64,000 nt of DNA from a virus (Duplodnaviria; Caudoviricetes). The notes under the pieces were generated by a model. It saw only the letters and a program-made list of their open reading frames with translations, was not told the DNA's origin and searched no databases. The position numbers and the translations under genes were made by a program. Every line of letters starts with the position of its first letter. Positions within the stretch are counted from its first letter, which is position 1. The stretch lies in the IMG/VR virus record IMGVR_UViG_3300021959_007005, one strand, 5' to 3'. Of the stretch, positions 15,618 to 35,649 are shown piece by piece.

Positions 15618-18298
15618 TGTATGTAGATGCACATTTTGATCGTAACAAAGATATTATCTATGTTGCTGAACGTATTAATGGCCATAGAGAGTATCGAGAG
15701 TACCCGCCAAGCTATATGTTTTATTATAAAGACCAACGTGGGAAATATGAAAGTATTTTCGGAGACAAACTCTCACGGTATTCAACTACAAATGGCAAGG
15801 CATTTAAAAAAGAAAAGAAAATGTATGGTGGACAAACATTATTTGAAAGTGATGTTAATCAAGTTTTCAAATGTTTGGAAAACAACTACTTGGGGAAAGA
15901 ACCTCCTAAACTAAACACTGCATTTTTTGATATTGAAGTTGACTTTGACAAAGATGTAGGATTTGCACCGCCAGAAGATCCGTTTAATCCTGTTACTGCT
16001 ATTGCTGTTAACTTAAATTGGATTGGCAAGACAATATGTATTGCTTGTAAGCCTGATACACTCACTAAAGAAGATGCACAAGAAATTTGTGATAGATTTC
16101 CTGACACACTTCTTATGGATACAGAAGAAGAACTGCTTCGAACATTTTTAGAGTTAATTGAAGACGCAGACGTAATGAGTGGATGGAATAGTGAAGGATT
16201 TGATATTCCATATTTGGTAAACCGCATTACACGTATACTTGGAAAAGATTACACACGTAAATTTTGCTTGTGGGATCAACTACCAAAGCGCAGAGAGTTT
16301 GAAAAATATGGCAAGGCACAAGAAACATATGATACAATTGGTCGATTGCATTTGGATTATATGCAACTATATCAGAAGTACACATATCATGAAATGCATA
16401 GTTATGCACTAGACGCAATTGGCGAATATGAGCTCAATGAGCGTAAGATTGCATATTCAGGCACATTAGATGCATTGTATAATAATGACTTTGAAACTTT
16501 TATTGATTACAACCGTCAAGATGTGGAATTGTTAGTTAAACTAGATGCAAAGTTGCAGTTTATTGACTTAGCAAATGTTATTGCACATGATAACACAGTA
16601 CTAATACAAACCACAATGGGCGCAGTTGCAGTTACTGACCAAGCTATTATTAATGAAGCACATCGCAATGGACTTATTGTTCCAGATAAACAACATGATA
16701 AAGTACAAAAGCATTATCCACAAACAACACAAGCCGCTGGTGCATACGTTGCAACACCAGTTAGAGGACGGCATGAATGGATTGGTAGTATGGATTTAAA
16801 CAGTCTGTATCCAAGTATTTTACGTGGACTTAACTTGAGTACTGAAACAATTGTTGGGCAAATTAGACATACATTAACTGTACCACTTCTACAAGAGTTT
16901 AAATGGGAAGCAGCAAGGGCTTGGGAAGGTAAATTCGCCACACCTGAATATGAGCTAGTAATGGCTAAAGATACTAAAACACAGTTATGGATTGACTTTG
17001 AAAATGGTGAAGAGTTAATGGCAACTGGCGCTGAGATATACCAGATCATTTTTGAAAGTGGACAGCCTTGGGTTATATCAAGTAATGCTACTATTATTAA
17101 ACAAGATAAAAAAGGCATCATTCCTGGCTTATTAGAGCGTTGGTATGCTGAACGTAAAGTATTACAAAAGAATGCCAAAGAAGCAAAAGGTGTTGATGGT
17201 GAAAAATTTACATATTGGGATAAACGACAGCTAGTTAAAAAGATTAACTTGAACAGTTTGTATGGTGCGTTACTTAATCCAGGCAGTAGATTTAATGATC
17301 CACGCATGGGGCAATCAACAACACTAACTGGCAGAACTATTGCTAGACATATGGGAGCTAAAGTAAATGAACTATTTACAGGAGAGTATGACCATGTCGG
17401 GGCCAGCATTATATATGGAGATACTGATAGTATCTATTTTAGTGCGTATCCTATATTCAAGGAACAGATAAAAAATGGAGAGTTTGAATGGGATAAAGAT
17501 AAGGTTAGTGAATTATATGACACAGTATGTGAGCAAGCTAACGTAACCTTTCCTGATTACATGGCAAATGCACATAATGTGCAAGACCGTGAGCAGGGAA
17601 AAATTATTGCCGCTGCTCGAGAAATGTGTGCGTTATCAGGTATCTTTATCAAGAAGAAACGCTATGCAATCCTAGTATATGACAACGAAGGGTTTAGAGA
17701 AGATTATGATGATAAACCTGGTAAAATTAAAGCCATGGGATTGGACTTAAAACGTAGCGATACTCCTCCATTTATGCAAGATTTTTTGAGTGAACTACTT
17801 TTAAAAACACTTACTGGTGTCCCTAATGAAGAACTTATTGAAAGAATTGTTGAATTCAGACGTGAGTTTAGAGACAAGCCAGCATGGGAGATTGGCACAC
17901 CTAAGCGTGTTAATAAGCTCACATATTATAATAATTTAGAGTGGGATAAAAAAGGCAGCTACAAAGGTAAAGCAAACATGCCAGGGCATGTTCGTGCCGC
18001 AATTAACTATAATCGTCTACGTGATATCAATAGTGATAAGTTTAGCTTAGATATTATTGATGGTATGAAAACTATTGTATGTAAATTAAAACCAAACCCA
18101 ATGGGATTTACTAGTATCGGTTATCCTACAGATGAAGGCAGAATTCCAGATTGGTTTAAGGAATTACCATTTGATACTGATCTTATGGAGGAGACTATTA
18201 TTACTAAAAAAATAGAAAACTTACTAGGAGTAATAGATATTGACTTATCTAAAGCAGAGGACAAAACTACATTTGAGAGTTTGTTTGATTTTGGATGA
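15617..18298 (+). CDS. Family B DNA polymerase (T4 gp43-like)
   Basis: Exonuclease FFDIEV and GWNSEGFD; polymerase DLNSLYPS, KINLNSLYG and YGDTDS motifs. Confidence 0.97.
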   Translation: MYVDAHFDRNKDIIYVAERINGHREYREYPPSYMFYYKDQRGKYESIFGDKLSRYSTTNGKAFKKEKKMYGGQTLFESDVNQVFKCLENNYLGKEPPKLNTAFFDIEVDFDKDVGFAPPEDPFNPVTAIAVNLNWIGKTICIACKPDTLTKEDAQEICDRFPDTLLMDTEEELLRTFLELIEDADVMSGWNSEGFDIPYLVNRITRILGKDYTRKFCLWDQLPKRREFEKYGKAQETYDTIGRLHLDYMQLYQKYTYHEMHSYALDAIGEYELNERKIAYSGTLDALYNNDFETFIDYNRQDVELLVKLDAKLQFIDLANVIAHDNTVLIQTTMGAVAVTDQAIINEAHRNGLIVPDKQHDKVQKHYPQTTQAAGAYVATPVRGRHEWIGSMDLNSLYPSILRGLNLSTETIVGQIRHTLTVPLLQEFKWEAARAWEGKFATPEYELVMAKDTKTQLWIDFENGEELMATGAEIYQIIFESGQPWVISSNATIIKQDKKGIIPGLLERWYAERKVLQKNAKEAKGVDGEKFTYWDKRQLVKKINLNSLYGALLNPGSRFNDPRMGQSTTLTGRTIARHMGAKVNELFTGEYDHVGASIIYGDTDSIYFSAYPIFKEQIKNGEFEWDKDKVSELYDTVCEQANVTFPDYMANAHNVQDREQGKIIAAAREMCALSGIFIKKKRYAILVYDNEGFREDYDDKPGKIKAMGLDLKRSDTPPFMQDFLSELLLKTLTGVPNEELIERIVEFRREFRDKPAWEIGTPKRVNKLTYYNNLEWDKKGSYKGKANMPGHVRAAINYNRLRDINSDKFSLDIIDGMKTIVCKLKPNPMGFTSIGYPTDEGRIPDWFKELPFDTDLMEETIITKKIENLLGVIDIDLSKAEDKTTFESLFDFG

Positions 18299-18527: not shown

Positions 18528-19247
18528 ATGAGAGATTATCTTCTCGATATTGTAAAACATACACGAAGTGTAGGCAACATTGATGCAGTTAAAGTTACTG
18601 ACGGATTAGTTGTCGAAGCAAAAGACGACGATAATAAGGTAATTGTGAAAGCAACTTATAAGTCAGCCCCAACAGAATTAGACGGTGTACTAGGGCTACC
18701 TAACTTGGATAAACTAAACATTATCCTTAATATTCCTGAGTACACAGAAAATGCAAAAATTAGTGTTGAAAATCGTGAACGCAATGGAGAAAGCACACCA
18801 TTTAGTTTGAAGTTTGAAAATGCAGGTGGCGACTTTAAAAATGACTTCCGCTTTATGAGTAAGGAACTAGTTACCCAACGTATTCCAGAAGTAAGATTTA
18901 AAGGTGCTAATTGGGATGTAGAGTTTGAACCACATAGTGCAAGCGTACAACGGTTTAAATTCCAAAGCCAAGCAAATAGTGAAGAAAGTGTGTTTATTGC
19001 AAAAACTGAAGACACCAATCTAAAGTTTTATTTTGGCGATGATAGTGGACATACTGGAAACTTAGTATTTCAGGCAGACATATCTGGATCACTAAAACAA
19101 AGCTGGAAATATCCAGTTGCAGAGGTATTAAACGTATTAAATATCAATGGTGACATTACTATGCGGTTTAGTGATAGTGGGGCACTTAAAATTGATGTAG
19201 ACAATGGCATGGCCATTTATGAATACATCTTTCCGGCACAAAGTTAA
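18528..19247 (+). CDS. Probable DNA polymerase sliding clamp (gp45-like)
   Basis: 239 aa, beta-rich, next to the polymerase; no diagnostic motif. Confidence 0.55.
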   Translation: MRDYLLDIVKHTRSVGNIDAVKVTDGLVVEAKDDDNKVIVKATYKSAPTELDGVLGLPNLDKLNIILNIPEYTENAKISVENRERNGESTPFSLKFENAGGDFKNDFRFMSKELVTQRIPEVRFKGANWDVEFEPHSASVQRFKFQSQANSEESVFIAKTEDTNLKFYFGDDSGHTGNLVFQADISGSLKQSWKYPVAEVLNVLNINGDITMRFSDSGALKIDVDNGMAIYEYIFPAQS

Positions 19248-19684
19248 TGATAGTTGGGTTCACATGTAGTGTATTTGACCTGCTACATGCAGGTCATATT
19301 GCAATGCTACGTGAAGCTAAAGATCATGTTGATTACTTAATAGTTGGGTTACAAACTGACCCAACTATTGATAGACCAGACGAAAAGAATAAACCAGTAC
19401 AGAGTTTAGTAGAAAGATACGCACAATTAGCAGCTACTAAATATGTTGATGAAATAATACCTTATCAAACTGAACAGGACTTAACTGACATACTTGAAAT
19501 GTATCATATTGATATTCGAATCCTTGGAGAAGAATATCGAGAAAAAGATTTTACTGGAAAAGAAGTTTGTCGCAAAAGAGAAATCGAACTATATTTTAAC
19601 AAACGAGATCATAGGTTTAGTACTAGTGATCTTAGGAAGAGAGTGGAAAATGCACCCTGCCAAAAAAGAAGCTCGCCTAAATAA
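19247..19684 (+). CDS. Cytidylyltransferase (TagD/RfaE-II-like)
   Basis: FDLLHAGH (HxGH), IVGLQTD and FSTS motifs. Confidence 0.88.
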   Translation: MIVGFTCSVFDLLHAGHIAMLREAKDHVDYLIVGLQTDPTIDRPDEKNKPVQSLVERYAQLAATKYVDEIIPYQTEQDLTDILEMYHIDIRILGEEYREKDFTGKEVCRKREIELYFNKRDHRFSTSDLRKRVENAPCQKRSSPK

Positions 19685-19838
19685 ACTACGTGAACAACAT
19701 AAAAATCTTGACATCAGGATCCAAAAGTTATATAATACAACTAATAGTGAACGTACCTTAAAAACCCTTAAAATTGAGAAATTAGATCTCAAAGATAAAA
19801 TTACCGAATTGGAGAATAGAAATGGTAAAAAAAATTAG
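19650..19838 (+). CDS. Small coiled-coil protein (DUF465/YdcH-like)
   Basis: LREQHKNLDIRI...LKIEKLDLKDKI; start moved to 19650. Confidence 0.7.
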   Translation: MHPAKKEARLNKLREQHKNLDIRIQKLYNTTNSERTLKTLKIEKLDLKDKITELENRNGKKN

Positions 19839-19992
19839 AGTTATTGAACCAGATATTGAAAATACTGGAGATGCAGAAAATATGACAGAGCTAGCAAAAT
19901 CTATGGATTGGAAGCTATGGGAAATCTTGCAAATTATGCAGAGATTAGAAAAGAAAATTGGGGCTGATGGTTTAGTTCTCGACGATGGCTGA
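19822..19992 (+). CDS. 56-aa hypothetical protein (not in ORF track)
   Basis: Hand translation MVKKIRVIEPDIENTGDAENMTELAKSMDWKLWEILQIMQRLEKKIGADGLVLDDG; fills the gap between genes. Confidence 0.6.
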   Translation: MVKKIRVIEPDIENTGDAENMTELAKSMDWKLWEILQIMQRLEKKIGADGLVLDDG

Positions 19993-20431
19993 TAATTATG
20001 AACCCTACGAAGCATATATGCGACGGAGATCAAAAGAAGAGGATGCAAAAATGAATAATGCTAAACGTAGTATTTGGGTAACTTTCACTAAAGAAGGTAT
20101 CCATAAGTATCCAGCAGCATTAGACGATCCTGCACTAGCAACAGGAGATGAGTATGATGTAAGTTTCTTAGGATACCCACATCGACATACTTTTCATTTT
20201 AAAGTACAAATACAAGTAACACACAACGATAGAGATATTGAATTTATTCAATTCAAGCGTTGGTTAGAGAATCTTTATAAAGAAGATATTCTCGAACTAG
20301 ATTACAAGTCATGTGAAATGATTGCAGATGACTTATATCTACACATCAACAGCAAATACCCCGGCCGGTTTGTTGTCATTGATGTCGCCGAAGATGGCGA
20401 AAACGGCTGTCAAATTGTTTATCCAGCATAA
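19985..20431 (+). CDS. queD: Divergent QueD-like (T-fold) protein
   Basis: GIHKYP, HRHTFHF, DIEFIQFKRWL, SCEMIA and EDGENG motifs; sits in the deazaguanine cluster. Confidence 0.7.
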   Translation: MADNYEPYEAYMRRRSKEEDAKMNNAKRSIWVTFTKEGIHKYPAALDDPALATGDEYDVSFLGYPHRHTFHFKVQIQVTHNDRDIEFIQFKRWLENLYKEDILELDYKSCEMIADDLYLHINSKYPGRFVVIDVAEDGENGCQIVYPA

Positions 20432-20440
20432 AGGAATATA

Positions 20441-20764
20441 GTGGTGAATAATGTAGGTACAGATATTCGAGACCTTCGTCAAGGTCGTGTGAGTATTAAT
20501 GATATCAAGTTTGACTTGATTAAGATTATCGAACCACATGATGGGTGGTTAGCAACAAATGAAGGAAGTGATAAACTTGTACGTCATCTTTTTACTCGTT
20601 ATTTGAGTGACTTAAGATACGCTGGTTTAGTAAATGACTTTAATATTAGAAGTGCTATACGTAATAATGCAATTACATATGATGTTTCTGTTAAAATGAG
20701 TCAAGAACGTAGTGATAAGAAACTCAAAATTCATGTGGGTGTATATCAGAAACGAGTAAAGTAA
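20441..20764 (+). CDS. Hypothetical protein, paralog of 24838-25125
   Basis: GTG start; shares SINDIKxDLIKIIEPxDG and ITYDVS..KLKIHVG with the paralog. Confidence 0.75.
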   Translation: MVNNVGTDIRDLRQGRVSINDIKFDLIKIIEPHDGWLATNEGSDKLVRHLFTRYLSDLRYAGLVNDFNIRSAIRNNAITYDVSVKMSQERSDKKLKIHVGVYQKRVK

Positions 20765-22275
20765 TGACAGCGACCCGTATTAACTTAACAGAACGTAATA
20801 AGGACTATGCAGTATTTTTGCCTAGTATTAGTACATTTTATAATAATTATATTGCTAAACAACGAGTAACCGGTGGACAGCACATTTTGCCAGACCGCAT
20901 GCCAGATGGTTTTGAAACTGGCATGGAAGGCATGAACTTTCTCAATGAGAAGGATGCTTACTATAGTTACAAGTGGGGGTTATACTCCGCAGGACATGCC
21001 CAACTTAATTTAAGCAAAGCTAATGATTCAGATGCAATGGTACAAGGACGTGATCGTGACAAAACGTTTATGCTCTGTGACAGTGGCGGGTTTCAGATTA
21101 TTAAAGGTGTTATCCAGTGTGATTGGGATAACTTTAAAACTGATGACAGTTTACGTCAGAAGATCTTAAACTGGTTGGAACACACAGGTGACTATAGTAT
21201 GATCCTGGATATTCCAACACTGGCGGCGGATCCTACATTTAGTGGACGTACTGGTATTACTAGTTTTAATCAGTGTTTGGAGTTTACAGACTTTAATGTA
21301 AACTGGTTTAAGAAACACCGCAAGTATCAAACAAAGTATCTTAATGTTATGCAAGGCCGTAATTGGGCTGAAGCAGAACATTGGTATGAAACTATGAAGC
21401 ATCATGATTTGGAAGGCTTTGCGTTTGGTGGTAGTGCTAAGAACGATATTAATATTGTACTACGAACACTTATTAAGATGCGTGATGATCAGCAACTTGA
21501 ACGTGGCAAACGTGATGTACTACACTACTTGGGCATTGGTAGACTGGAATGGGCAACAGCCTATACAGCAATCCAACGTGCATTGCGTGAGCATGTAAAC
21601 GAAGATGTTCAAGTAATGTTTGACTGTGCATCGCCTTTCTTAGCAACAGCAAATGGTACAATGTATACCCAACATGTACATAAAAATGACCGCTTTGGTT
21701 ATGTTATGGATAAAGCAATGGACAATAAAGCACTAAGCGGTAGTAAGTTGGCATTTCCCTTTGGTAGTCCAATTGGCGAAAGACTTAACTTAGGTGACAT
21801 TTGTCATTATGCACCTGGCATGCTGAATAAAATTGGCAAAGAAGGGAAAACTAGTTGGGATAGTTTTACATACATGCTGTTAATGTCACATAATGTATAC
21901 AGTCATATTGAAAGTGTACAACGTGCAAACGCACTTACTGATATGGTAAACACAACAGTAAGTACAGACTACAGACAGTGGCGTAAGCTAAAAGCGACCA
22001 GTAAAGATGAAGTGTTTAGTCCGTATGTACCACGTAATATTGTTTATATGACGCAATTTATTGATCAACTGTTCCGTAGTGAAACGCCAATGCAAATGTT
22101 AGACGAAGCGGAGTCTATGCTTGCTAACTTTAGTGGACAGAAACTACAAACATCAAGTGCTGGAAGTTTTAGTAACTTGTTTGAAGTTAACGATGTGGTT
22201 TCAGAAGAATCAAATGAAATGACAGCTGAACAAGAAGCTGAGGCTGAAAACTTCTTAGAAACATTGGAGGTATAA
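20764..22275 (+). CDS. dpdA: DpdA/tRNA-guanine transglycosylase-like protein
   Basis: TGT-type DSGGFQ, LDIP, VMQG, HYLG and FDCAS motifs; no CxCxxC zinc site; located among folE/queD/queE. Confidence 0.78.
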   Translation: MTATRINLTERNKDYAVFLPSISTFYNNYIAKQRVTGGQHILPDRMPDGFETGMEGMNFLNEKDAYYSYKWGLYSAGHAQLNLSKANDSDAMVQGRDRDKTFMLCDSGGFQIIKGVIQCDWDNFKTDDSLRQKILNWLEHTGDYSMILDIPTLAADPTFSGRTGITSFNQCLEFTDFNVNWFKKHRKYQTKYLNVMQGRNWAEAEHWYETMKHHDLEGFAFGGSAKNDINIVLRTLIKMRDDQQLERGKRDVLHYLGIGRLEWATAYTAIQRALREHVNEDVQVMFDCASPFLATANGTMYTQHVHKNDRFGYVMDKAMDNKALSGSKLAFPFGSPIGERLNLGDICHYAPGMLNKIGKEGKTSWDSFTYMLLMSHNVYSHIESVQRANALTDMVNTTVSTDYRQWRKLKATSKDEVFSPYVPRNIVYMTQFIDQLFRSETPMQMLDEAESMLANFSGQKLQTSSAGSFSNLFEVNDVVSEESNEMTAEQEAEAENFLETLEV

Positions 22276-22276
22276 A

Positions 22277-23044
22277 ATGCGTGATATTGTTTTAGTAACT
22301 GGTGGATTTGATCCGTTACACTCAGGACATATTGCTTATTTTAAAGCAGCTCGGGAACTAGGTGATATCTTAGTTGTCGGGCTGAATAGCGACAGTTGGC
22401 TTACCCGTAAAAAAGGTAGACCATTTATGTCTTGGAATGAACGTAGTAGTATTATTGGCGAACTTGAGTGTGTTGATGAGGTTATTGGATTTAACGATGA
22501 TGATGGCACCGCTGTTGATGCAATTTCAGAAATGATTTCAGAATATCCGAATGATAATATTATATTTGCCAATGGCGGAGACCGTAAAAAAGGCACAACA
22601 CCAGAACTAGAATTTGCTAAACAATTCGATAACGTTACATTTGAGTTTGGTGTTGGTGGTGAAGATAAAAAGAACTCTAGTAGTTGGATACTAAAAGACT
22701 GGAGCCAACCTACTACAAAAAGAGCATGGGGTACTTATACAGTACTTCACAATGGCCCAGGCTGGGCAGTAAAAGAACTAGCATTTGGTACTGAAACTCC
22801 ACTAAGTGATCAACGACATTTTATTCGTAGTGAACATTGGCATGTAGTTGAAGGCACTATACAAATGGATTTAGAGTTTGACAATGGCGAAAAATCTAGT
22901 ACAATATATACATCAGGCGAAAGTATTGACATTCCTGTTTTAACTTGGCACAAAGCGACTAACATTGGTAGCACAACAGCAAAAGTTATTGAAGTTTGGA
23001 TGGGCGATGAATTAACAGAAGATGATATTGAAAGAAGAGATTAA
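22277..23044 (+). CDS. Nucleotidyltransferase (RfaE-II-like) fused to a cupin (mannose-6-phosphate isomerase type II-like)
   Basis: GGFDPLHSGH, GLNSD, FANGGDR, KNSSS; C-terminal RAWG..SDQRH..RSEHWHVVEG. Confidence 0.88.
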   Translation: MRDIVLVTGGFDPLHSGHIAYFKAARELGDILVVGLNSDSWLTRKKGRPFMSWNERSSIIGELECVDEVIGFNDDDGTAVDAISEMISEYPNDNIIFANGGDRKKGTTPELEFAKQFDNVTFEFGVGGEDKKNSSSWILKDWSQPTTKRAWGTYTVLHNGPGWAVKELAFGTETPLSDQRHFIRSEHWHVVEGTIQMDLEFDNGEKSSTIYTSGESIDIPVLTWHKATNIGSTTAKVIEVWMGDELTEDDIERRD

Positions 23045-24105
23045 TGAACACAATTTGGATTATACCAATTGAGCCTATTGACCAGCGTTATACTAAACAG
23101 TGGTACGATAATATTCCACTTACATTAAAAGCAAAAATTGCAGAACGTGAACTTAATTATTTTGTACAAACTATTGATGGTGAAGATTTTAAACCTGATG
23201 TGAGAACTGAAGGTGCCTTTCTTGACTTTGGTGCAACTAATGTATACAAAGCAACACAAGCGGCAGAAGTAAGTCGTATGTTTAGCAATGGCAAAGTTAA
23301 AGCAGGTGACAAATTTCTGATAACTGATGCTTGGAACTTTATCATCACTCCAATCAAATACATGAGTGACTTATTAGATATTCCAGTAGAGATACATAGT
23401 ATTTGGCATGCTGGTGCATATGATCCTACAGACATACTTGGCTATAAAATGAGTAAGCCTTGGCCTTCACATGTTGAAAAAAGTTGGTATTATAGTAGTG
23501 ATTATAATTACTTTGCAACAAATTTCCACAAAAATATGTTTTTACGCAACTTGGATATTCCAGTAGAAGATCATGGAAGAGCAATACGTAGTGGGCAACC
23601 GCACGAGCTTATTGTTGATAGTTTAGTAAAGCATCAAAATACACCAAAGAGTGATAAAATTATGTGGCCACATAGGTGGAATGATGATAAGCAACCGGAT
23701 ATTGCATTGGCATTAGCACAAGATTTTGATATGGTTATTACACAAAAAATGAACCTTGACAAATCACAGTACTATGCTAAAATGGGAGAAAGTAAATTAA
23801 TTTTTAGTTGTGCATTACATGAAAACTTAGGTATCAGTGTTATGGAAGCAGTACTAACTGGTGCTATTCCTATTGTACCAGATCGTGCAAGCTATAGTGA
23901 GATGTATTTGCCAGAATTTAAGTACCCATCTGAATGGACTGCAAGTTTTGAATCATACAAACAACATAGGGATTCACTAGTAGGATTTATAAAAGAAAAA
24001 CTAATCATGTTTGACAAATACCAAGACGTATTGGTTAAGCAACGTAACATTCTTATTGAAAATTATCTAAATAGCAGTGTTATGATAAACAACATACTAC
24101 AATAA
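23044..24105 (+). CDS. GT-B glycosyltransferase (GT4-like)
   Basis: HENLGISVMEAVLTGAIPIV motif. Confidence 0.8.
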   Translation: MNTIWIIPIEPIDQRYTKQWYDNIPLTLKAKIAERELNYFVQTIDGEDFKPDVRTEGAFLDFGATNVYKATQAAEVSRMFSNGKVKAGDKFLITDAWNFIITPIKYMSDLLDIPVEIHSIWHAGAYDPTDILGYKMSKPWPSHVEKSWYYSSDYNYFATNFHKNMFLRNLDIPVEDHGRAIRSGQPHELIVDSLVKHQNTPKSDKIMWPHRWNDDKQPDIALALAQDFDMVITQKMNLDKSQYYAKMGESKLIFSCALHENLGISVMEAVLTGAIPIVPDRASYSEMYLPEFKYPSEWTASFESYKQHRDSLVGFIKEKLIMFDKYQDVLVKQRNILIENYLNSSVMINNILQ

Positions 24106-24121
24106 AAAGGAACATAGTATA

Positions 24122-24811
24122 ATGACAAAGACTTCCGATTTGATTAAGCAACGACTTAAAGATCAAAATATTAGACATTGGGCTGGTGACAACATTAGCT
24201 CAGTATTAGAAGATGGTGATAAACAAAAACTTATTGATGAAGCGACAACTAGTTTTGAAGATGTATTAGACTCATTAATTATTGACAGGGATAATGACCC
24301 AAATAGTCATGGAACTGCCAAGCGTCTTGCTAAGATGTATTTTAATGAATTAATGAGTGGACGGTATGAGCCAGCACCTAGTGCAACAGCATTTCCAAAT
24401 GATAGTGCTGAACGTTATGAAGGTATGCTAGTTGTACGTAGTGAATTAAGAAGCATGTGTTCACATCATCATCAGCCAGTAGCAGGAGTTGCATATATTG
24501 GCATTATCGCCTCTAATAAATTAATTGGACTAAGTAAGTATACAAGAATTGCACAGTGGTGTGCAAGACGTGGAACTTTACAAGAAGAGTTGGCAACCGA
24601 CATTGCTCGAGAAATTATGAAAGCAACAGAAAGTGAAAATGTAGGGGTCTACATTCAGGCTACCCATGGCTGTTGTGAAAATCGAGGTATTATGGCACAT
24701 AGTAGTTTAACACAAACTACAGTACTTAAAGGTAGCTTCCATAATGATCCTGGATGCAAAAAAGAATTCATGGATAATATTAAACTACAACAAGAATATG
24801 CTCCAAGATAA
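24122..24811 (+). CDS. folE: GTP cyclohydrolase I
   Basis: SMCSHHHQP, GLSKYTRI, LQEEL and HGCCENRG motifs. Confidence 0.95.
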   Translation: MTKTSDLIKQRLKDQNIRHWAGDNISSVLEDGDKQKLIDEATTSFEDVLDSLIIDRDNDPNSHGTAKRLAKMYFNELMSGRYEPAPSATAFPNDSAERYEGMLVVRSELRSMCSHHHQPVAGVAYIGIIASNKLIGLSKYTRIAQWCARRGTLQEELATDIAREIMKATESENVGVYIQATHGCCENRGIMAHSSLTQTTVLKGSFHNDPGCKKEFMDNIKLQQEYAPR

Positions 24812-24837
24812 ATGTAAACAATTAATAAGGAATAAAG

Positions 24838-25125
24838 ATGTATACCCGTTTAAGCATTAACGATATCAAATGGGATCTAATAAAGATCATTGAACCATTT
24901 GATGGTATCCTCGAAAATAAGCCACGTGGAGAAAAGTCGATCCGTCGACTTTTTGAAGCGTATCTTAAAGACTTACGTTCAGATCAACAAATATCAGATT
25001 TTAACGTATATAGTAACATTCGTGACACAGCGATTACTTACGATGTTTCTATAAAAGTGGCATCAGATAGATCGCCACGAAAACTAAAAATCCATGTTGG
25101 CACATATCAACACCCATGGATATAA
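24838..25125 (+). CDS. Hypothetical protein, paralog of 20441-20764
   Basis: Aligns by eye with the 20441 ORF over about 90 aa. Confidence 0.75.
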   Translation: MYTRLSINDIKWDLIKIIEPFDGILENKPRGEKSIRRLFEAYLKDLRSDQQISDFNVYSNIRDTAITYDVSIKVASDRSPRKLKIHVGTYQHPWI

Positions 25126-25197
25126 TTTTTAAATTGCATTAGTAATTTATATAAGGGTGAGGCATTAGTTAAAGAATACCCTTCAGAAAGGAAAAAA

Positions 25198-26274
25198 ATG
25201 AAACTATTAAAACTATTGGCTGCTACACTAGTAGTGGCAGCTGTAGGCGTTTCTGCAAGTGCAGATGCTCCTAAGGATAAAGCAAAAGTCGCATTTATTT
25301 ACGTTGGCCCAACAGGTGATCACGGTTGGACATATCGTCACGATATTGGTCGTCAGCAAGTAGAAGAAGCATACGGAGATCGTGTCGAAACTACGTTTGT
25401 TGAAAGTGTAGCAGAAGGTGCTGACGCTGAACGTGTAATGACACAAATGGCACTACAGGGCGCAGACATTATTTTTGCGACATCATTTGGATATATGGAT
25501 CCAATAATGAACGTAGCAAAGAAGTTTCCAAACGTAAAGTTTGAACATGCTACAGGTTATAAATCATCTGACAACGTTGCTAACTATGGTTTGAAACTAT
25601 ACCAAGCAAGACACGTACAAGGTGTTGTAGCAGGTATGATGACAAAAACAAACAAAATTTGTTATATTGCTTCATTCCCAATTCCAGAAGTTATGCGTGA
25701 GATTAACACATTCTTCTTGGGCGCACGTAAGTATAATCCAGATGTAGAACTATCAATTGCGTGGGTTTACACATGGTATGATCCAGGCAAAGAAAAAGAT
25801 GCGGCTGTGGCTCTGATCCAACAAGGTTGTGACATTGTAGCACAACACACTGACTCACCTGCTCCGCTACAAGCGGCAGAACAAGCAGGTGTACTTGGTT
25901 TTGGACAAGCAAGTGATCAAATGAAGTTTGCTCCTAACGCACAATTGACAGCAACTATTGACAATTGGGGTCCTTACTACATCGACAAAGTAGGACAAGT
26001 ACTAGATGGTACATGGGAAACAGGCGATTACTTTGGACATATGAACGAAGGTGCTGTACAAATGGCACCATTTGCTAATATGCCAGCTGATGTACAAGCA
26101 GAAGCACAACGTGTAAAAGATGCTATTAGCGCAGGCGAGTTGTTTGGATTTACAGGTCCAATTAACAAGCAAGACGGAACAGTGTTCCTGAAAGAAGGTG
26201 AAGTAGCAACGAGACAGCAACTAGACACTATGATGTTTTATGTCGAAGGCATCACATCACAGGTACCTGGTTAA
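25198..26274 (+). CDS. BMP-family ABC transporter substrate-binding protein (purine/nucleoside type)
   Basis: Signal peptide; VAFIYVGP.GD.GW, FATSFGY, TWYDPGKE and AQHTDS motifs. Confidence 0.9.
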   Translation: MKLLKLLAATLVVAAVGVSASADAPKDKAKVAFIYVGPTGDHGWTYRHDIGRQQVEEAYGDRVETTFVESVAEGADAERVMTQMALQGADIIFATSFGYMDPIMNVAKKFPNVKFEHATGYKSSDNVANYGLKLYQARHVQGVVAGMMTKTNKICYIASFPIPEVMREINTFFLGARKYNPDVELSIAWVYTWYDPGKEKDAAVALIQQGCDIVAQHTDSPAPLQAAEQAGVLGFGQASDQMKFAPNAQLTATIDNWGPYYIDKVGQVLDGTWETGDYFGHMNEGAVQMAPFANMPADVQAEAQRVKDAISAGELFGFTGPINKQDGTVFLKEGEVATRQQLDTMMFYVEGITSQVPG

Positions 26275-27137
26275 TGATTCCAGTAATTGATTTACAAGCA
26301 TCAGACGCTTTAGATCGCATTGACGAAGCCTACACAACAGTAGGCTTCGCAGTGTTTACAAATGCGTTAACTGACACACATCAACAAGACATCAAGTCTT
26401 GGCAAGAACAAATGAAAGCATTCTTTGAATTGCCAATGGATACAAAACAAAGCTATCCTTACAACGCAGATACTAACTTAGGTTACAGTATGGTAGGTGA
26501 CGAAAATGTAGACCCTACAGCACCCAAGGATATTAAAGAAAGTTTTAATTATAACAATACACGTATGCCAGATGATCTTTGGCCTACTGAACTAAATGGA
26601 TTTAAATCAACAGCATTACAAAGTATAGATATTGCCGATAAACTTACACTAAAGATATTAGAAAAGTTTGATACTATCCTAGATAGCGGAACTACACTAG
26701 TAGATTCACATTTACAACCTTTTAATACAACAAGGGTCATTCATTATCCAGCATATGATGGACCAGTACAAGATAAACAAATGCGTATAGGAGAACATAG
26801 TGACTACGGTACTATTACTTTACTTTGGCAAATTAACGATGTACCAGGACTCGAAGTTCAAGACCTTGATGGAACATGGCATGCAGTACCATATGAAAAG
26901 GATGCAGTAATTTGTAACATAGGCGACTTGTTACAACGATGGACTAATGACTATTTCAAGTCAACCAAGCACAGAGTTGTAAACAGTCACATACATCAAC
27001 AACGCTATAGTATGCCACACTTTGTAGATCCTACACCGGGTACTATTGTTGATAATCTGCGTTTCCACGAAGCGCCTAAATATCCGCCAATTGAATCAAA
27101 AGAGTATTTGATGTGGCGCCTAGCACAGAGTTATTAA
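26274..27137 (+). CDS. Fe/2OG oxygenase, isopenicillin N synthase family
   Basis: IPVIDL, HSDYGTITLL, NIGDLLQRWTN, HRV and RYS motifs. Confidence 0.9.
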   Translation: MIPVIDLQASDALDRIDEAYTTVGFAVFTNALTDTHQQDIKSWQEQMKAFFELPMDTKQSYPYNADTNLGYSMVGDENVDPTAPKDIKESFNYNNTRMPDDLWPTELNGFKSTALQSIDIADKLTLKILEKFDTILDSGTTLVDSHLQPFNTTRVIHYPAYDGPVQDKQMRIGEHSDYGTITLLWQINDVPGLEVQDLDGTWHAVPYEKDAVICNIGDLLQRWTNDYFKSTKHRVVNSHIHQQRYSMPHFVDPTPGTIVDNLRFHEAPKYPPIESKEYLMWRLAQSY

Positions 27138-27138
27138 T

Positions 27139-27654
27139 ATGAAACAATATATAAAAAGTTACATGGACTTTCCTAAAGACGGTATTGATTTTAAATGTAC
27201 CGCAAGTTTATGTGCATCACAGGATGGGTTTGAACTAGCCAACAATTTTATATACAGTAATTTATTGAAGTATTGTCCAGTAGATAAAATTATTGGTATT
27301 GATGCTAGAGGTTTTATCTTTGCAAGTGTGTTTGCACACAGGACTAGAGGACCACTTGTGCTTGCACGTAAACCAGGGAAGTTGCCAGGTAGTACTATTA
27401 GTCGTGAGTATGAACTAGAGTACGGAACCAACGAACTAGTAATGCAACGAGATAGTTTTGATAAGGGCGACACTGTTCTTATTATAGATGACTTAATAGC
27501 AACTGGTGGAACTATGAAAGCAGTTATTGAAATGTGTGATGAAATAGAAGTAACCATAAAAGCAGTTGCATGTATAATGGACTTACCTAAACTTGGCGGA
27601 AGTGATTATGTTAAGAATCGTAACATACCATTTTACGCAGGTGTAAATTATTAA
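27139..27654 (+). CDS. apt: Adenine phosphoribosyltransferase
   Basis: DFPKDGI, DARGF, RKPGKLP, LEYG and IDDLIATGGT motifs. Confidence 0.92.
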   Translation: MKQYIKSYMDFPKDGIDFKCTASLCASQDGFELANNFIYSNLLKYCPVDKIIGIDARGFIFASVFAHRTRGPLVLARKPGKLPGSTISREYELEYGTNELVMQRDSFDKGDTVLIIDDLIATGGTMKAVIEMCDEIEVTIKAVACIMDLPKLGGSDYVKNRNIPFYAGVNY

Positions 27655-28860
27655 ATGGCAAACTTAGTAGTAATAGGAACCCAATGGGGCGATGAAGGCA
27701 AAGGCAAAGTAGTTGATTTACTAGCAGAACAAGCAGATGTTATAGTACGTTTTCAAGGAGGACATAACGCAGGGCATACACTGGTAATAGGTGACAAAGT
27801 TTTTAAACTTAGCTTACTGCCCAGCGGTATAGTAAGAGAAGATAAAGTTTCGGTTATTGGTAACGGTGTTGTATTGAATCCTTGGAAACTATTAGAAGAG
27901 ATTGAACTAGTACAGTCACAAGGTGTAAACATTGATCCTAGTAGATTGATGATTGCAGAAAACACTCCGCTAATTTTACCCTATCACCAAGCATTAGATC
28001 AGTCAAGAGAAGAAGTAACTGATAAAAAAATCGGTACTACTGGCAGAGGCATTGGTCCTGCATATGAAGATAAAGCAGGAAGACGTGCAATTAAAGTAGG
28101 AGATCTTAGAGATGATGAACTACTCAAACATAGACTAGCAATAGCCGCAGAGTATCACGACTTTGACCAACAACAGTTGTTTAATCAGCTAGCACATATC
28201 AAAAAACATGTATTACAATATGTAAATGATGTACCACTTTATCTAAATCAAAAGACTGACTTAGGATTTAATATATTATTCGAAGGCGCACAAGGAAGCA
28301 TGCTAGATGTAGACTTTGGCACTTATCCTTATGTAACAAGCTCAAACACACTAGCAGGTATGGCTAGTATAGGCTCAGGGGTACCGCATAATAAGATACC
28401 AAATGTAATTGGTATAACAAAAGCATACACAACTCGAGTTGGCGAAGGGCCAATGACGACTGAATTATTTGATGATGTTGGAGAGCATCTAGCAAGTGTA
28501 GGTAAAGAAAAAGGTACAGTAACTGGTAGAAGCAGACGCTGTGGATGGTTTGATGTATCACAAGTAAAACGAACATGTATGTTAAATGGTGTTACTGGCA
28601 TAGCATTAATGAAAATAGACGTACTCGATAAACTCGAGACTATTAAGATTTGTACTGACGTACACAACGGAATACCAGTGTATGAAGAGCTACCTGGTTG
28701 GTGTACTAGTACAATAGGTATAACTGATTATTCAGATTTACCAAGACTTGCTCAAGAGTATATTAACCGTATTGAGCAATTAACACAAACCGAAGTAGTT
28801 TTGATATCAACTGGACCAGAAAGAGATCAAACTATTTTATTACAAGATTCTTTCTTTTAG
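27655..28860 (+). CDS. purA: Adenylosuccinate synthetase
   Basis: QWGDEGKGK, GGHNAGHT, GTTGRGIGP, EGAQG and TVTGRSRRCGW motifs. Confidence 0.95.
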   Translation: MANLVVIGTQWGDEGKGKVVDLLAEQADVIVRFQGGHNAGHTLVIGDKVFKLSLLPSGIVREDKVSVIGNGVVLNPWKLLEEIELVQSQGVNIDPSRLMIAENTPLILPYHQALDQSREEVTDKKIGTTGRGIGPAYEDKAGRRAIKVGDLRDDELLKHRLAIAAEYHDFDQQQLFNQLAHIKKHVLQYVNDVPLYLNQKTDLGFNILFEGAQGSMLDVDFGTYPYVTSSNTLAGMASIGSGVPHNKIPNVIGITKAYTTRVGEGPMTTELFDDVGEHLASVGKEKGTVTGRSRRCGWFDVSQVKRTCMLNGVTGIALMKIDVLDKLETIKICTDVHNGIPVYEELPGWCTSTIGITDYSDLPRLAQEYINRIEQLTQTEVVLISTGPERDQTILLQDSFF

Positions 28861-28894
28861 AGAAAGAAATAACACTAACAGGGAGAAATATATT

Positions 28895-29515
28895 ATGTTA
28901 GGATTTTTTAAAGATATTGACAGAAGCATGTTGCTGAAACTAGTAGCACTACATGTAATTGTTATCGTAGTAAGTAACGCACTAGTAAGTATTCCAGTAG
29001 AAATTTTTGGAATTAAACTTACCTGGGCTGCATTTACATTTCCGTTAGTTGTACTAGCAACTGACTTAACAGTACGAATGTTAGGTAAAAACATTGCACG
29101 TTCAACAATTGCGGCAGCTTATCCGTTGGCAATTATTGGCTCAATTTTAGTTGTAATGGCGGAGGGTGCACCAAGTAGTGTAGCAATGCGTATTGGTTTA
29201 GCTAGTGCAACAGCATATGCAGTTGGCACAATGTTGGATGTATATGTATTTCAATACCTACGTGAAAACTTTATGAAGCATTGGTGGATTGCGCCAGCAG
29301 TATCAACTGTAGCGGCAAACGTCATTGACACATACACATTCTTTTGGGTTGCGTTCAACAACAGTGCAGACGAATATATGGCTGCAAACTGGGTAGAGAT
29401 CGCAGGATCACAAGTTGTGATTAAGATTGCAGTAGGACTTATTATCTTCCTACCAGCATACGGTGTGCTATTACGTTACTTAAATGGTAAACTTTCAGAA
29501 GAAGACGCCGAATAA
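28895..29515 (+). CDS. yhhQ: Queuosine precursor (preQ0/preQ1) transporter, VUT family
   Basis: SN.LV..P, TWAAFTFP, TDLTVR..G and IDTYTFF..AF motifs; multi-pass membrane protein. Confidence 0.9.
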   Translation: MLGFFKDIDRSMLLKLVALHVIVIVVSNALVSIPVEIFGIKLTWAAFTFPLVVLATDLTVRMLGKNIARSTIAAAYPLAIIGSILVVMAEGAPSSVAMRIGLASATAYAVGTMLDVYVFQYLRENFMKHWWIAPAVSTVAANVIDTYTFFWVAFNNSADEYMAANWVEIAGSQVVIKIAVGLIIFLPAYGVLLRYLNGKLSEEDAE

Positions 29516-29526
29516 TACAAAATTAA

Positions 29527-29553
29527 AAACGGTGGGGGAGATCCCCGCCGTTT
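29527..29553 (+). terminator. GC-rich hairpin, probable intrinsic terminator
   Basis: aaacggtgggg-gagat-ccccgccgttt (11 bp with one G-U), just after yhhQ. Confidence 0.7.
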
Positions 29554-29570
29554 AATATAAGGATAATATA

Positions 29571-33165: not shown

Positions 33166-33175
33166 TAAAAGTAGT

Positions 33176-33234: not shown

Positions 33235-34131
33235 ATGAAGTTAAGATATAGCGAAGCATTCTACAGTGTACAAGGTGAAGGCAAGTTTGTGGGAGTACCT
33301 AGTGTATTTCTGCGTACTTTTGGTTGTAACTTTCGTTGCATGAACTTTGGACTTGATAGAAGCGAGCCAATGCGTGACGTAAAACAAAAACAAGGTGTAA
33401 TACATAACGAAGAAGTACAAGGTCTATTAGACAATAAAGTACATGAAACTACAGAAGTATTTACAGACTTGCCCATTATACACACAGGCTGTGATACATA
33501 TGCAAGTATCTATCCAGAGTTTAAACACTTTAACAAGCAAGCTACAGTTGACGAAGTTGTAGAGCATTTAATTAGTTTACTGCCAGAAGGAAAGTGGACT
33601 TGTGATAACGGTCAAGACATACATTTGATAATGACCGGAGGTGAACCGTTGTTGGCGTGGCAACGACTGTACATAGAATTATTTGAACATCCACGTATGC
33701 AGGATCTAAAAAATGTTACATTTGAAACAAATACTACACAATTTCTCAAAGACGATCTCTTTGACTATCTCAACAATAGCGACAGGATTACTGTCACATG
33801 GTCATGTTCCCCGAAACTTAGTGTTAGTGGAGAACCTTGGGATACTGCTATTAAACCTAAAGTTGCTCATGAGTATAGTCTTGTGGACGGCAGTGACTTG
33901 TATCTCAAGTTTGTTGTCGCTGATCGTATGGACATTGAAGAAGCTGAGCAAGCTGTTGAAGAATATCGTGCTGAAGGTTTGGAATGCCCTGTGTACCTTA
34001 TGCCATTGGGTGGTAGGTCTGAAGAGTACAATCTTAACGTCCAAGAAGTTGCAAACATCTGCATGGAAAAAGGGTGGCGTTTCACCCCAAGACTTCACAT
34101 TTCACTCTTCGGAAATGCGTGGGGCACTTAA
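33235..34131 (+). CDS. queE: 7-carboxy-7-deazaguanine synthase (radical SAM)
   Basis: FYSVQGEG..G.PSVFLRTFGC, TGGEP, FETN, SCSPKL and RLH motifs. Confidence 0.9.
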   Translation: MKLRYSEAFYSVQGEGKFVGVPSVFLRTFGCNFRCMNFGLDRSEPMRDVKQKQGVIHNEEVQGLLDNKVHETTEVFTDLPIIHTGCDTYASIYPEFKHFNKQATVDEVVEHLISLLPEGKWTCDNGQDIHLIMTGGEPLLAWQRLYIELFEHPRMQDLKNVTFETNTTQFLKDDLFDYLNNSDRITVTWSCSPKLSVSGEPWDTAIKPKVAHEYSLVDGSDLYLKFVVADRMDIEEAEQAVEEYRAEGLECPVYLMPLGGRSEEYNLNVQEVANICMEKGWRFTPRLHISLFGNAWGT

Positions 34132-34557: not shown

Positions 34558-35649
34558 ATGAACAACTATATCTTTACAAGCGAAAGCGTTAGTGATGGAC
34601 ACCCAGATAAAATAGCAGATCAAATCAGTGATGCACTAGTAGATGCCGGACTAACCAATGGCGACGAAACAACTCGTGTAGCTATTGAAACACTTGTAAC
34701 CACTAACCATGTAACGTTAGCGGGCGAAGTAAAAAACTTTAACGTAAGCAAAGACAAGGTAAAACAAATCGTTCGTGACAAAGTTAAAGAGATTGGTTAT
34801 GAACAAGAAGGATTTCATTGGGATAACTTGCGTATCTACAATGAGATTCACTCACAAAGTGGAGACATTGCGCTAGGCACAGACGACTTTGGTGCAGGAG
34901 ATCAAGGACTAATGTTTGGCTATGCTTGTAATCATACAGACAGTATGATGCCAGCACCTATTCATTACAGCCATGAGATACTAAAGAACTTGAAAAGCAA
35001 ACGTGGTGCTATACTAGGACCAGATGCTAAGAGTCAAGTAAGTGTAGAGTACTATGGTGCTCGAAGAGATGGTATAATTAAACGTATTGACCAAGTTGTA
35101 ATAAGTACTCAGCATACTGAAGGTAATGTAGAGGAAGCTAGACATCTTTGTAAACTTTCAGCAATGGAAGAACTTGGAGATTTAGTGGATGACAACACTA
35201 TATGGCATCTTAATCCTACAGGTAATTTTGTTATCGGTGGTCCTGACGGCGATGCTGGTGTCACAGGAAGAAAGATTATCGTGGACACTTATGGCGGTTT
35301 CGCTCCTCATGGTGGCGGTGCTTTTAGTGGCAAGGATCCTACTAAAGTCGACCGCTCTGCAGCCTATATGGCTCGTTGGCTTGCTAAAAATGTTGTAGCA
35401 GATAATATGGCAGACTGGTGTAATATCCAATTAAGTTATGCTATTGGTGTTAAAGAGCCCACAAGCATTTATGTTGATAGTAACGGGCACAACGCTAGTA
35501 TTGCTAAGTTTATTGAACGTGAGATTGATTTAACTCCAAAAGGAATTATTGACAGATTTGACTTGTTTAACTATACCAACTACAGCAAAAATTGTGTATA
35601 TGGACACTTTGGTGCTAAAGATGTTCCTTGGGAGAAAATTGGATGGTAA
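34558..35649 (+). CDS. metK: S-adenosylmethionine synthetase
   Basis: FTSESVSDGHPDK, GAGDQG, GRKIIVDTYGG and GGGAFSGKD motifs. Confidence 0.97.
   Translation: MNNYIFTSESVSDGHPDKIADQISDALVDAGLTNGDETTRVAIETLVTTNHVTLAGEVKNFNVSKDKVKQIVRDKVKEIGYEQEGFHWDNLRIYNEIHSQSGDIALGTDDFGAGDQGLMFGYACNHTDSMMPAPIHYSHEILKNLKSKRGAILGPDAKSQVSVEYYGARRDGIIKRIDQVVISTQHTEGNVEEARHLCKLSAMEELGDLVDDNTIWHLNPTGNFVIGGPDGDAGVTGRKIIVDTYGGFAPHGGGAFSGKDPTKVDRSAAYMARWLAKNVVADNMADWCNIQLSYAIGVKEPTSIYVDSNGHNASIAKFIEREIDLTPKGIIDRFDLFNYTNYSKNCVYGHFGAKDVPWEKIGW

Follow-up and report, generated by a model that had tools for sequence, protein, structure and literature searches.

In the DNA of Cellulophaga phage phiST, deoxyguanosine (dG) is fully replaced by 2'-deoxy-7-deazaguanine (dDG) (PMC10516641). 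The same study described DpdL, a QueD paralogue in which the CxxxHGH motif is replaced by LxxxHRHxF, and proposed it as the decarboxylase that converts 7-carboxy-7-deazaguanine (CDG) to 7-deazaguanine; expression of DpdA and DpdL from Acidovorax phage ACP17 in E. coli yielded no dDG, and the authors suggested a missing enzyme (PMC10516641). The virion DNA of Pseudomonas jumbo phage PA5oct contains a modified G, read by the authors as lying in GA and GG contexts, and END nucleases, which respond to modified G, restrict this phage; neither the identity of the base nor any mass spectrometry of PA5oct was reported (PMC12191111). Sugars are known on phage pyrimidines, where GT-B enzymes, some accompanied by phage sugar-nucleotide genes, decorate pre-modified bases, as with the T4 alpha- and beta-glycosyltransferases, arabinosyl-5-hydroxymethylcytosine and glycosylated 5-hydroxycytosine (PMC13326640; 10.1101/2023.12.21.572611). 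In actinomycete huimycin biosynthesis, HuiG transfers a sugar onto O6-methylated free preQ0. The GT4 enzyme QTMAN mannosylates the cyclopentenediol of queuosine in tRNA. Here we analysed a 64,000-nt stretch of marine phage DNA (IMG/VR record IMGVR_UViG_3300021959_007005; hereafter the window), in which the module under study occupies positions 19247-24811 and the neighbours considered span 18528-35649 (Table 1). A sequence-only reading of the window had proposed that 7-deazaguanine insertion genes and a sugar activation and transfer set together make a glycosylated deazaguanine in DNA. The gene linkage described below, and the sugar-nucleotide genes that stand beside the glycosyltransferase in 59 of 81 loci, spoke for that proposal; the QueD that it assumed turned out to be DpdL, and the sugar on a DNA base remains a deduction. 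We put the probability that a module with this GT4 enzyme makes glycosylated 7-deazaguanine in DNA at roughly 0.5. The system is best regarded as a variant of the phage 7-deazaguanine DNA-modification systems, and we found no published description of this variant; literature searches for glycosylated deazaguanine in DNA returned none, and an earlier mention of this particular glycosyltransferase may exist.

The linkage of the module's 353-aa glycosyltransferase to deazaguanine genes is far beyond chance: 80 independent viral contigs and several cultured lineages show it. A profile search of IMG/VR with the glycosyltransferase recovered 80 distinct loci at 55-99% identity; these and the window form an 81-locus set, to which PA5oct was added for an 82-locus set, and all open reading frames (ORFs) were clustered. 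Within 8 kb of the glycosyltransferase, the 81 loci contained FolE in 73 cases, DpdL in 71 and a DpdA-like gene in 65, so that the glycosyltransferase stays linked to dpdA in its relatives. The corresponding counts for 82 loci were 73 for FolE, 72 for DpdL, 66 for the DpdA-like family, 57 for a Gpt-like phosphoribosyltransferase (PRTase), 55 for a 239-aa protein, 48 for QueE, 44 for nucleotidyltransferases and 32 for canonical QueD; where a family is missing, the locus is in many cases a truncated contig. All 17 GenBank phage records with a glycosyltransferase match at E <= 1e-25 encode DpdL within 4 kb. They comprise six cultured lineages, namely PA5oct-like phages, ACP17, Phosso, Xanthomonas X1 and BUDD, and Burkholderia BCSR5. 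The gene order (GT, glycosyltransferase) is QueD-FolE-x-DpdA-GT-DpdL-QueE in ACP17, where the DpdA and DpdL genes flank the glycosyltransferase gene, DpdA-GT-DpdL-..-PRTase-QueE in PA5oct, FolE-..-GT-DpdA-DpdL-QueE in Xanthomonas X1 and DpdL-GT-x-FolE-..-QueE in Phosso, where 170 kb separate this cluster from the DpdA-like gene; in BUDD and BCSR5, the glycosyltransferase lies 1.5-3 kb from DpdL in the same genome. Among 185,579 prokaryote genomes, the sole glycosyltransferase match was a 15.8-kb contig of a metagenome-assembled genome, in which the cluster was likewise present, and neither the GenBank phages nor the prokaryote genomes yielded a close homologue outside a DpdL/deazaguanine cluster. 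Conservation of the GT-dpdA neighbourhood, which the sequence-only reading had suggested examining, holds at identities between 99% and 26% and in different hosts. The converse fails: phiST-like phages and several others have DpdL but lack this glycosyltransferase, which therefore supplements a DpdL-type system without being required by it.

These gene orders bear on an alternative in which the cluster makes only unglycosylated dDG (or its CDG counterpart, dCDG), while the glycosyltransferase and the sugar genes act on a virion protein, the host envelope or another modified base. The glycosyltransferase would then owe its position to co-expression with early or middle genes close to the replication module, and the neighbouring 239-aa protein, a virion protein in PA5oct, would place a protein acceptor at hand. 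Co-expression alone is hard put to explain a linkage that extends over six phage lineages and 80 contigs, with the glycosyltransferase between DpdA and DpdL in ACP17 and PA5oct, between FolE and DpdA in X1, and still adjoining DpdL in Phosso despite the distant DpdA. The lack of close homologues outside the deazaguanine cluster argues in the same direction, and the conserved neighbourhood showed no enzyme for hydroxymethyl-pyrimidines.

The 148-aa module protein had been described as QueD-like by the sequence-only reading. Judged by its sequence, it is DpdL and not canonical QueD: the CxxxHGH motif of QueD is absent, and LGYPHRHTF matches the DpdL signature LxxxHRHxF, of which L62, H66, R67, H68 and F70 are invariant in 15 DpdL-family sequences. 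Identity is 32% to phiST DpdL (gp040; E 2e-18) and 54% to ACP17 DpdL (E 5e-45). The protein had no Pfam match, PTPS included, and a DpdL profile searched against PDB sequences gave nothing meaningful. The assignment of DpdL to the T-fold/PTPS family derives from HHpred evidence published for the phiST protein; hhalign of the DpdL family against the co-resident canonical QueD gave a probability of 42% (E 2.6e-4) over only 41 residues, and PTPS is assigned to 10% of the members of an Atlas cluster. In these loci DpdL was found with FolE, QueE and DpdA but without QueC, which is absent from IMG/VR contig G001 (78 kb; 99% identity to the window over the module) and from the complete genomes of PA5oct, ACP17 and Phosso; the genome from which the window comes is represented only in part. 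Because QueC is absent, the base would be CDG-derived, and because the gene is DpdL rather than QueD, it would be 7-deazaguanine rather than CDG or preQ0, decarboxylation of CDG being the proposed activity of DpdL. Canonical PTPS-family QueD of one related locus (L022, 13937-14413) and of 12 other loci carries CxxxHGY, in which the third zinc His of the textbook CxxxHGH is replaced by Tyr.

We used structure prediction on the 503-aa protein, whose sequence stays below the curated cut-offs of the transglycosylase families (TIGR00449, 18.7 bits against 47.6; PF01702, E 0.1). The best 50 Foldseek rows for its AlphaFold model (predicted local distance difference test, pLDDT, 86.8) were all tRNA-guanine transglycosylases (TGTs), at E 7.5e-8 to 5.5e-7 and probability 1.00, and the top VIA matches were likewise all TGTs, with Z 19-20 and a root-mean-square deviation of ~4.5 A over ~300 residues. 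In a 35-sequence alignment of the DpdA-like family, D106 (GDSGGFQ), D149 (LDIP) and D287 (FDCASP) are invariant; we take these to be the catalytic and base-binding aspartates, by analogy with D102 and D280 of Z. mobilis TGT. The DSGG region aligns with ACP17 DpdA, and the protein is 36% identical to PA5oct EST35_0316. No similarity was detectable to phiST DpdA3 (259 aa; hhalign probability 4%), and neither phmmer nor profile searches of PDB sequences with the 503-aa or the 353-aa protein turned up a meaningful match. The predicted fold and motifs, by which alone it is recognisable, thus confirm a divergent TGT/DpdA-type enzyme. Since a canonical TGT is absent from the complete genomes of PA5oct, ACP17 and Phosso, the DpdA-like protein is the only insertion candidate, and enzymes of the 503-aa type would exchange guanine in DNA.

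Its resemblance to tRNA enzymes could also be taken to mean that tRNA is the substrate of both the TGT-like enzyme and the glycosyltransferase, in which case a glycosylated deazaguanosine similar to mannosyl-queuosine would tune translation during infection. The uniform TGT fold matches, the place of QTMAN among the best Swiss-Prot fold matches of the glycosyltransferase (below) and the presence of a YhhQ precursor transporter would all suit such a role. The CxCxxC zinc motif of tRNA TGTs, however, appears not to be conserved in the 35-sequence alignment, where the corresponding region holds a single near-invariant Cys (C347) together with D345, H376 and H381. PA5oct carries its modified G in virion DNA and has no other TGT-like gene in its genome, and DNA is also what the homologous DpdL/DpdA3 system modifies in phiST. 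Genes for DNA polymerase and primase-helicase are syntenic with the cluster, and the window has no tRNA genes. We consider a tRNA target highly improbable.

The 353-aa protein is confirmed by its predicted fold as a GT-B glycosyltransferase of the GT4 type. Foldseek matched its model (pLDDT 88.2) to BshA, SenB, LmbT, PimA and MshA at E 1e-10 to 1e-8 (BshA, E 6e-10), with template-modelling (TM) scores of 0.55-0.67 against BshA, SenB, PimA and MshA. QTMAN took ranks 4 and 30 among the Swiss-Prot model matches (E 2e-10). Among viral models, the ACP17 glycosyltransferase matched with a TM score of 0.85, and a cyanophage DNA alpha-glycosyltransferase appeared only at rank 40. The EX7E motif (E260/E268, HENLGISVMEA) and the basic pair R211/K216 are invariant across 72 sequences, cultured phages included; we assume for them the roles usual in GT4 enzymes, with the basic residues at the phosphates of the nucleoside diphosphate (NDP). 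The Pfam family Glycos_transf_1 matched the protein itself at E 0.23 and 34 of 36 relatives at E <= 1 (best 1.2e-5), and one relative only (P0205) has a precomputed PF00534 match suggesting that the cut-off was reached. DUF3524, the N-terminal domain of QTMAN, was absent from 36 family members at E <= 1, and we do not class the protein as a QTMAN member, although its predicted fold suggests that it may work like one. A complex prediction for the glycosyltransferase with DpdL scored 0.11 against a mark of 0.32 and carries no weight either way. We also asked whether the acceptor domain is more conserved than the donor domain across sugar-gene lineages; this was rejected, as the N-terminal acceptor and C-terminal donor domains are 77% and 79% identical to those of a locus with different sugar genes (L015). 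A 360-aa 'DNA primase' that follows the DpdA-like gene in Phosso proved unrelated to the 353-aa protein, and a primase identity for the glycosyltransferase was dropped.

The top fold matches, which include BshA, MshA, SenB, LmbT and a 2-deoxystreptamine GlcNAc-transferase, are GT4 enzymes that act on small molecules, which would fit a second alternative: the glycosyltransferase acts on the free base or nucleotide as an intermediate, and the final DNA base is sugar-free. The sugar form might be needed by DpdL or DpdA and then be removed, or the product might be a soluble, huimycin-like deazapurine glycoside. HuiG does glycosylate a free 7-deazaguanine, the failure of ACP17 DpdA and DpdL alone to give dDG fits a required extra step, and a phosphoribosyltransferase is conserved here as in the tubercidin and toyocamycin pathways. 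The fold-match ranking does not discriminate, all GT4 matches falling at E 1e-10 to 1e-7; phiST needs no such step, and no sugar-removing hydrolase is conserved in the cluster. We judge a sugar-free end product reached in this way to be decidedly unlikely.

Sugar transfer from an NDP-sugar by the 353-aa protein would be in keeping with the genes that adjoin it across the loci, which encode nucleotidyltransferases, phosphomannose isomerase (PMI), phosphomannomutase (PMM), short-chain dehydrogenase/reductase (SDR), UDP-glucose dehydrogenase (UGDH) and DegT proteins. In the window, the 145-aa nucleotidyltransferase is closest in NCBIfam to RfaE domain II (TIGR02199, E 5.9e-21) and to glycerol-3-phosphate cytidylyltransferase, both below cut-off, and is a paralogue (38% identity) of the N-terminal half of the 255-aa fusion protein. 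The PMI cupin of this fusion scored 71.6 bits against a PF01050 cut-off of 23.6 and covered profile positions 12-113 of 116, and the C-terminal part of TIGR01479 also matched (E 1.2e-18). The N-terminal half is PF01467 (RfaE-II-like) rather than the GT-A-type NTP_transferase of GMP-PMI enzymes, so that the fusion is, by sequence, analogous to GMP-PMI with a different architecture. Across the loci with sugar-nucleotide genes, three sets appear interchangeable: a nucleotidyltransferase (with or without cupin) immediately upstream of the glycosyltransferase; a set of SDR epimerase/dehydratase, UDP-Glc/GDP-Man dehydrogenase, DegT aminotransferase and eukaryote-type PMM; and DegT alone. The nucleotidyltransferase/cupin family was found in 44 of 82 loci, in many of them directly upstream of the glycosyltransferase, and neither nucleotidyltransferase nor cupin fusion is present in PA5oct and ACP17. 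The fusion, which the sequence-only reading had made the source of the sugar donor, is thus accessory. The PMI cupin of the window and the PMM of relatives would both feed a mannose-type NDP-sugar.

Starting from the gene identities, folds, catalytic motifs and linkage, which were established directly, we propose a route in which every chemical step, the acceptor atom and the sugar are deduced. FolE would convert GTP to dihydroneopterin triphosphate (H2NTP), and QueD, encoded by the host or in a part of the phage genome beyond the window, would convert H2NTP to carboxytetrahydropterin (CPH4). QueE, with S-adenosylmethionine (SAM) from MetK, would then form CDG, at which the pathway would halt, no QueC having been found. 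DpdL would act on CDG, by the published proposal giving 7-deazaguanine, and the divergent DpdA-type transglycosylase would exchange that base for guanine in phage DNA, with the Gpt-like PRTase recycling the displaced guanine. The GT4-type glycosyltransferase would add a sugar from an NDP-sugar to the deazaguanine; glycosylation on DNA after insertion seems somewhat more probable than glycosylation of the free base beforehand. This phage would make the donor with the nucleotidyltransferase/PMI fusion that it encodes and with the second nucleotidyltransferase, which suggests a manno-configured sugar, and relatives without sugar genes would draw on a host NDP-sugar. The resulting bulky, sugar-bearing G positions would block restriction and other DNA-targeting defences.

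Several points weigh against glycosylated 7-deazaguanine as the product. The main chemical objection is that plain 7-deazaguanine offers no obvious hydroxyl to which a sugar could be attached. N2, C7 and the CDG carboxyl, as candidate sites, are all unusual for GT4 enzymes; the options for the linkage are a C-glycoside at C7, an N-glycoside at N2 and, if DpdL does not decarboxylate, an acyl glycoside of the 7-carboxylate. Full replacement by dDG is reached in phiST with DpdL and without this glycosyltransferase (PMC10516641), so that the glycosyltransferase is not needed for insertion. Canonical PTPS-type QueD was found neither in the 64-kb window nor in the 78-kb G001. The DpdA-like family seems far more abundant than the glycosyltransferase family, with at least 6721 database matches against at least 793, and both genes fall under the Pfam and NCBIfam cut-offs. 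As the donor domain of the glycosyltransferase is as conserved as its acceptor domain, a change of sugar genes may not alter the sugar transferred. The glycosyltransferase family is also acidic (median pI, isoelectric point, 5.2), unlike the T4 DNA glucosyltransferases; because the DpdA-like family is acidic too, the pI is uninformative on DNA binding and carries little weight. The phiST result, the missing acceptor group and the acidity would equally suit the alternative in which the cluster makes only unglycosylated dDG or dCDG, an account that we nevertheless consider unlikely in view of the linkage. Our confidence in glycosylated 7-deazaguanine is held near 0.5 by the uncertain acceptor, by a chemistry that is deduced throughout and by the fact that phiST works without the glycosyltransferase. 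The more specific claim, that the virion DNA of PA5oct, ACP17, Phosso, Xanthomonas X1 and an abundant marine jumbo phage group contains glycosylated 7-deazaguanine, with the GT4 enzyme partnering DpdL and a new long DpdA subfamily, we rate just short of even odds.

Table 1 Genes and sequence features of the module and its surroundings, in window coordinates.
Feature	Coordinates	Strand	Basis
239-aa protein, phrog_12062	18528..19247	+	PHROG E 7.8e-35; 32% identity to PA5oct EST35_0314
Cytidylyltransferase-fold nucleotidyltransferase, 145 aa	19247..19684	+	PF01467 E 3.9e-16
Sigma-70 consensus match TTGACA-17-TATAAT, perfect	19708..19736	+	In gap before DpdL gene
DpdL-family protein, 148 aa	19985..20431	+	Motif LGYPHRHTF; homology to phiST and ACP17 DpdL
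Basic protein X, 107 aa, pI 9.8	20441..20764	+	Paralogue of 24838-25125
TGT/DpdA-type enzyme, 503 aa	20764..22275	+	Predicted fold and motifs
Nucleotidyltransferase and PMI cupin fusion, 255 aa	22277..23044	+	PF01467 E 1.1e-13; PF01050 E 8.2e-20
GT-B (GT4-like) glycosyltransferase, 353 aa	23044..24105	+	Predicted fold and motifs
GTP cyclohydrolase I (FolE), 229 aa	24122..24811	+	PF01227 E 3.5e-39
X paralogue, 95 aa, pI 9.3	24838..25125	+	59% identity to X
YhhQ/Vut_1 membrane protein (queuosine-precursor transporter family)	28895..29515	+	PF02592 E 5.6e-25
Gpt-like (xanthine-guanine type) PRTase, 186 aa	31157..31717	+	PF00156 E 7e-11
QueE-type radical-SAM 7-carboxy-7-deazaguanine synthase	33235..34131	+	Similarity to PA5oct QueE
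S-adenosylmethionine synthetase (MetK)	34558..35649	+	PF02773 E 3.2e-57; PF00438; PF02772

All module genes lie on the + strand, with the coordinates that the sequence-only reading had given them, in a surrounding block of + strand genes only and a G+C content of ~36% (Table 1). Its calls of a cytidylyltransferase (PF01467 above cut-off), a DpdA/TGT-like gene (Foldseek and VIA fold matches, motifs), a nucleotidyltransferase/cupin fusion (PF01467 and PF01050 above cut-offs), a GT-B glycosyltransferase (predicted fold) and FolE (PF01227, 134.5 bits against a cut-off of 27) were all borne out. The description of the module as one continuous operon holds only roughly, given a 300-nt gap at 19684-19985, which contains two small ORFs of ~62 aa (coiled-coil-like) and 56 aa and the perfect sigma-70 match. 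A second perfect site lies at 15469-15496, ahead of the gene for the family-B DNA polymerase PolB (15617-18298), which together with an Smr protein precedes the module; the site at 19708-19736 is a match to the consensus and no more, and the total of such sites in the region does not exceed that in shuffled sequences. The 239-aa protein, located between PolB and the DpdA-like gene, is probably not an enzyme; its PA5oct homologue bears the annotation of virion structural protein.

Contrary to a pathway confined to 19247-24811, pathway genes continue downstream with YhhQ (present in 18 loci), the Gpt-like PRTase, QueE and MetK. The QueE protein is 31% identical to that of PA5oct (E 2e-34) and matches five NCBIfam QueE models at E 3e-12 to 7e-9, all under cut-off; MetK comes after QueE in several related loci. 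The Gpt-like PRTase, which adjoins QueE in PA5oct, matches NF006613 at E 5.6e-9, below cut-off. X and its paralogue (E 1e-35) bracket the DpdA-NTase-GT-FolE core (NTase, nucleotidyltransferase), and the X family follows DpdL in 22 related loci. Atlas features and a PF17482 match at E 0.09 offer a lead, and only a lead, towards stand-alone proteins resembling the C-terminal part of tail sheath proteins. A relationship of X to the 86-aa gene upstream of the PA5oct DpdA-like gene was considered and discarded, the two being unrelated.

Other genes of the region showed features of their own. At 31718-32518, adjoining the Gpt-like PRTase, lies a 266-aa protein with a net charge of ~-48, a pI of 4.1 and no family match, which 27 related loci conserve; a protein this acidic would be well suited to DNA mimicry or anti-restriction. 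A cassette at 25198-28860 encodes a Bmp/PnrA-type substrate-binding protein, a 2-oxoglutarate (2OG)-Fe(II) oxygenase, an adenine phosphoribosyltransferase (Apt) and a full-length adenylosuccinate synthetase (PurA; PF00709, E 2.5e-157). The cassette is variable, since G001 differs between the X paralogue and PurA. At 30472-31164 lies a 230-aa TIM-barrel protein with weak dihydroorotate-dehydrogenase and IMPDH/GMP-reductase-type matches, which is not conserved with the cluster. A PRTase, PurA and a TIM-barrel reductase-like gene recall the toyocamycin/tubercidin nucleotide route. We did not adopt such a deaza-adenine route, as PurA, Apt and the dihydroorotate-dehydrogenase-like gene are not conserved with the cluster, which retains only the Gpt-like PRTase, and as the motif-limited resistance of PA5oct fits base exchange better. 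Xanthomonas X1 (L088) carries at 1855-2388, between FolE and the glycosyltransferase, a 177-aa PP-loop protein of the 'PAPS reductase family', which might be an ATP-dependent enzyme similar to QueC, with the CDG carboxylate as its target in that lineage. In Sinorhizobium phage Phosso (L085), a 177-aa gene annotated 'glycosylase' lies at 7011-7544, directly upstream of DpdL-GT.

The completeness estimate of 22% for G001 implies a jumbo phage of roughly 350 kb. Megablast of the module region against GenBank phages gave zero matches, and the stretch was present in assembled contigs of public runs from marine and estuarine metagenomes of at least 16 studies. RNA-labelled marine libraries also contained it, although such libraries may hold DNA. 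Contigs from public marine runs diverge from the window at gene boundaries, namely at 20438 (after DpdL), 23018-23048 (the NTase/GT junction) and 24105 (the GT/FolE junction), a pattern suggestive of strains that occur together and differ by exchanged modules around the glycosyltransferase. Contigs from three runs share a 1-nt deletion at 24121.

7-Deazaguanine DNA and sugar-decorated pyrimidines are both established phage counter-defences, and their combination has not been described. If glycosylated 7-deazaguanine is indeed made, it would represent a new chemical class of DNA hypermodification, probably with a new type of glycosidic linkage, and to our knowledge the first sugar-bearing purine in any DNA. 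The families concerned are widespread, with hundreds of database members for the glycosyltransferase and thousands for the DpdA-like enzyme, and the module is found in cultivable phages, including PA5oct, a P. aeruginosa phage studied for therapy. A sugar on the inserted base could settle two observations, the modified G of PA5oct sensed by END nucleases and the failed reconstitution of dDG from ACP17 DpdA and DpdL, and would bear on how restriction enzymes, CRISPR tools, sequencing chemistries and type IV nucleases act on such genomes.

Compared with known systems, the window shares with phiST (FolE, QueD, QueE, DpdL, DpdA3) the genes for FolE, QueE, DpdL with LxxxHRHxF and a divergent TGT-type enzyme, as well as the lack of QueC. 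It differs in that phiST has no GT4 glycosyltransferase and no sugar-nucleotide genes, encoding a MazG-like and a P-loop protein instead, in that the 259-aa DpdA3 shows no detectable similarity to the 503-aa protein, and in that QueD is present in phiST and none is found in the window. Closer relatives are PA5oct (Wroclawvirus), with homologues of the DpdA-like protein (36% identity), glycosyltransferase (37%), DpdL (64%) and QueE (31%), and ACP17, with homologues of the glycosyltransferase (32%) and DpdL (54%). PA5oct also shares the synteny of PolB, the 239-aa protein and the DpdA-like gene, and the Gpt-like PRTase. In contrast to the window, these two phages have no nucleotidyltransferases or cupin fusion, so that the donor would come from the host, and X paralogues, YhhQ and MetK were not seen nearby; the literature searched assigns no role in glycosylation to any PA5oct or ACP17 gene. 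Type II PMI/GMP-PMI bifunctional enzymes have the PMI cupin in common with the window fusion, whose N-terminal half carries a cytidylyltransferase fold instead of the GT-A-type domain. The pyrimidine glycosylation systems are alike in using a GT-B enzyme on a pre-modified base and in having sugar gene sets that vary by lineage; here the base would be a 7-deazapurine without a hydroxyl, the cluster has no hydroxymethylase or TET enzyme, and the glycosyltransferase is GT4-like. QTMAN and HuiG both place a sugar on a 7-deazaguanine derivative. HuiG does so on O6-methylated free preQ0 in an actinomycete natural-product pathway. QTMAN is also a GT4-type GT-B enzyme, and its sugar, mannose, matches the mannose-type donor to which the PMI cupin of the window and the PMM of its relatives point; its cyclopentenediol acceptor is absent here, and DUF3524 was not matched in 36 members of the phage family.

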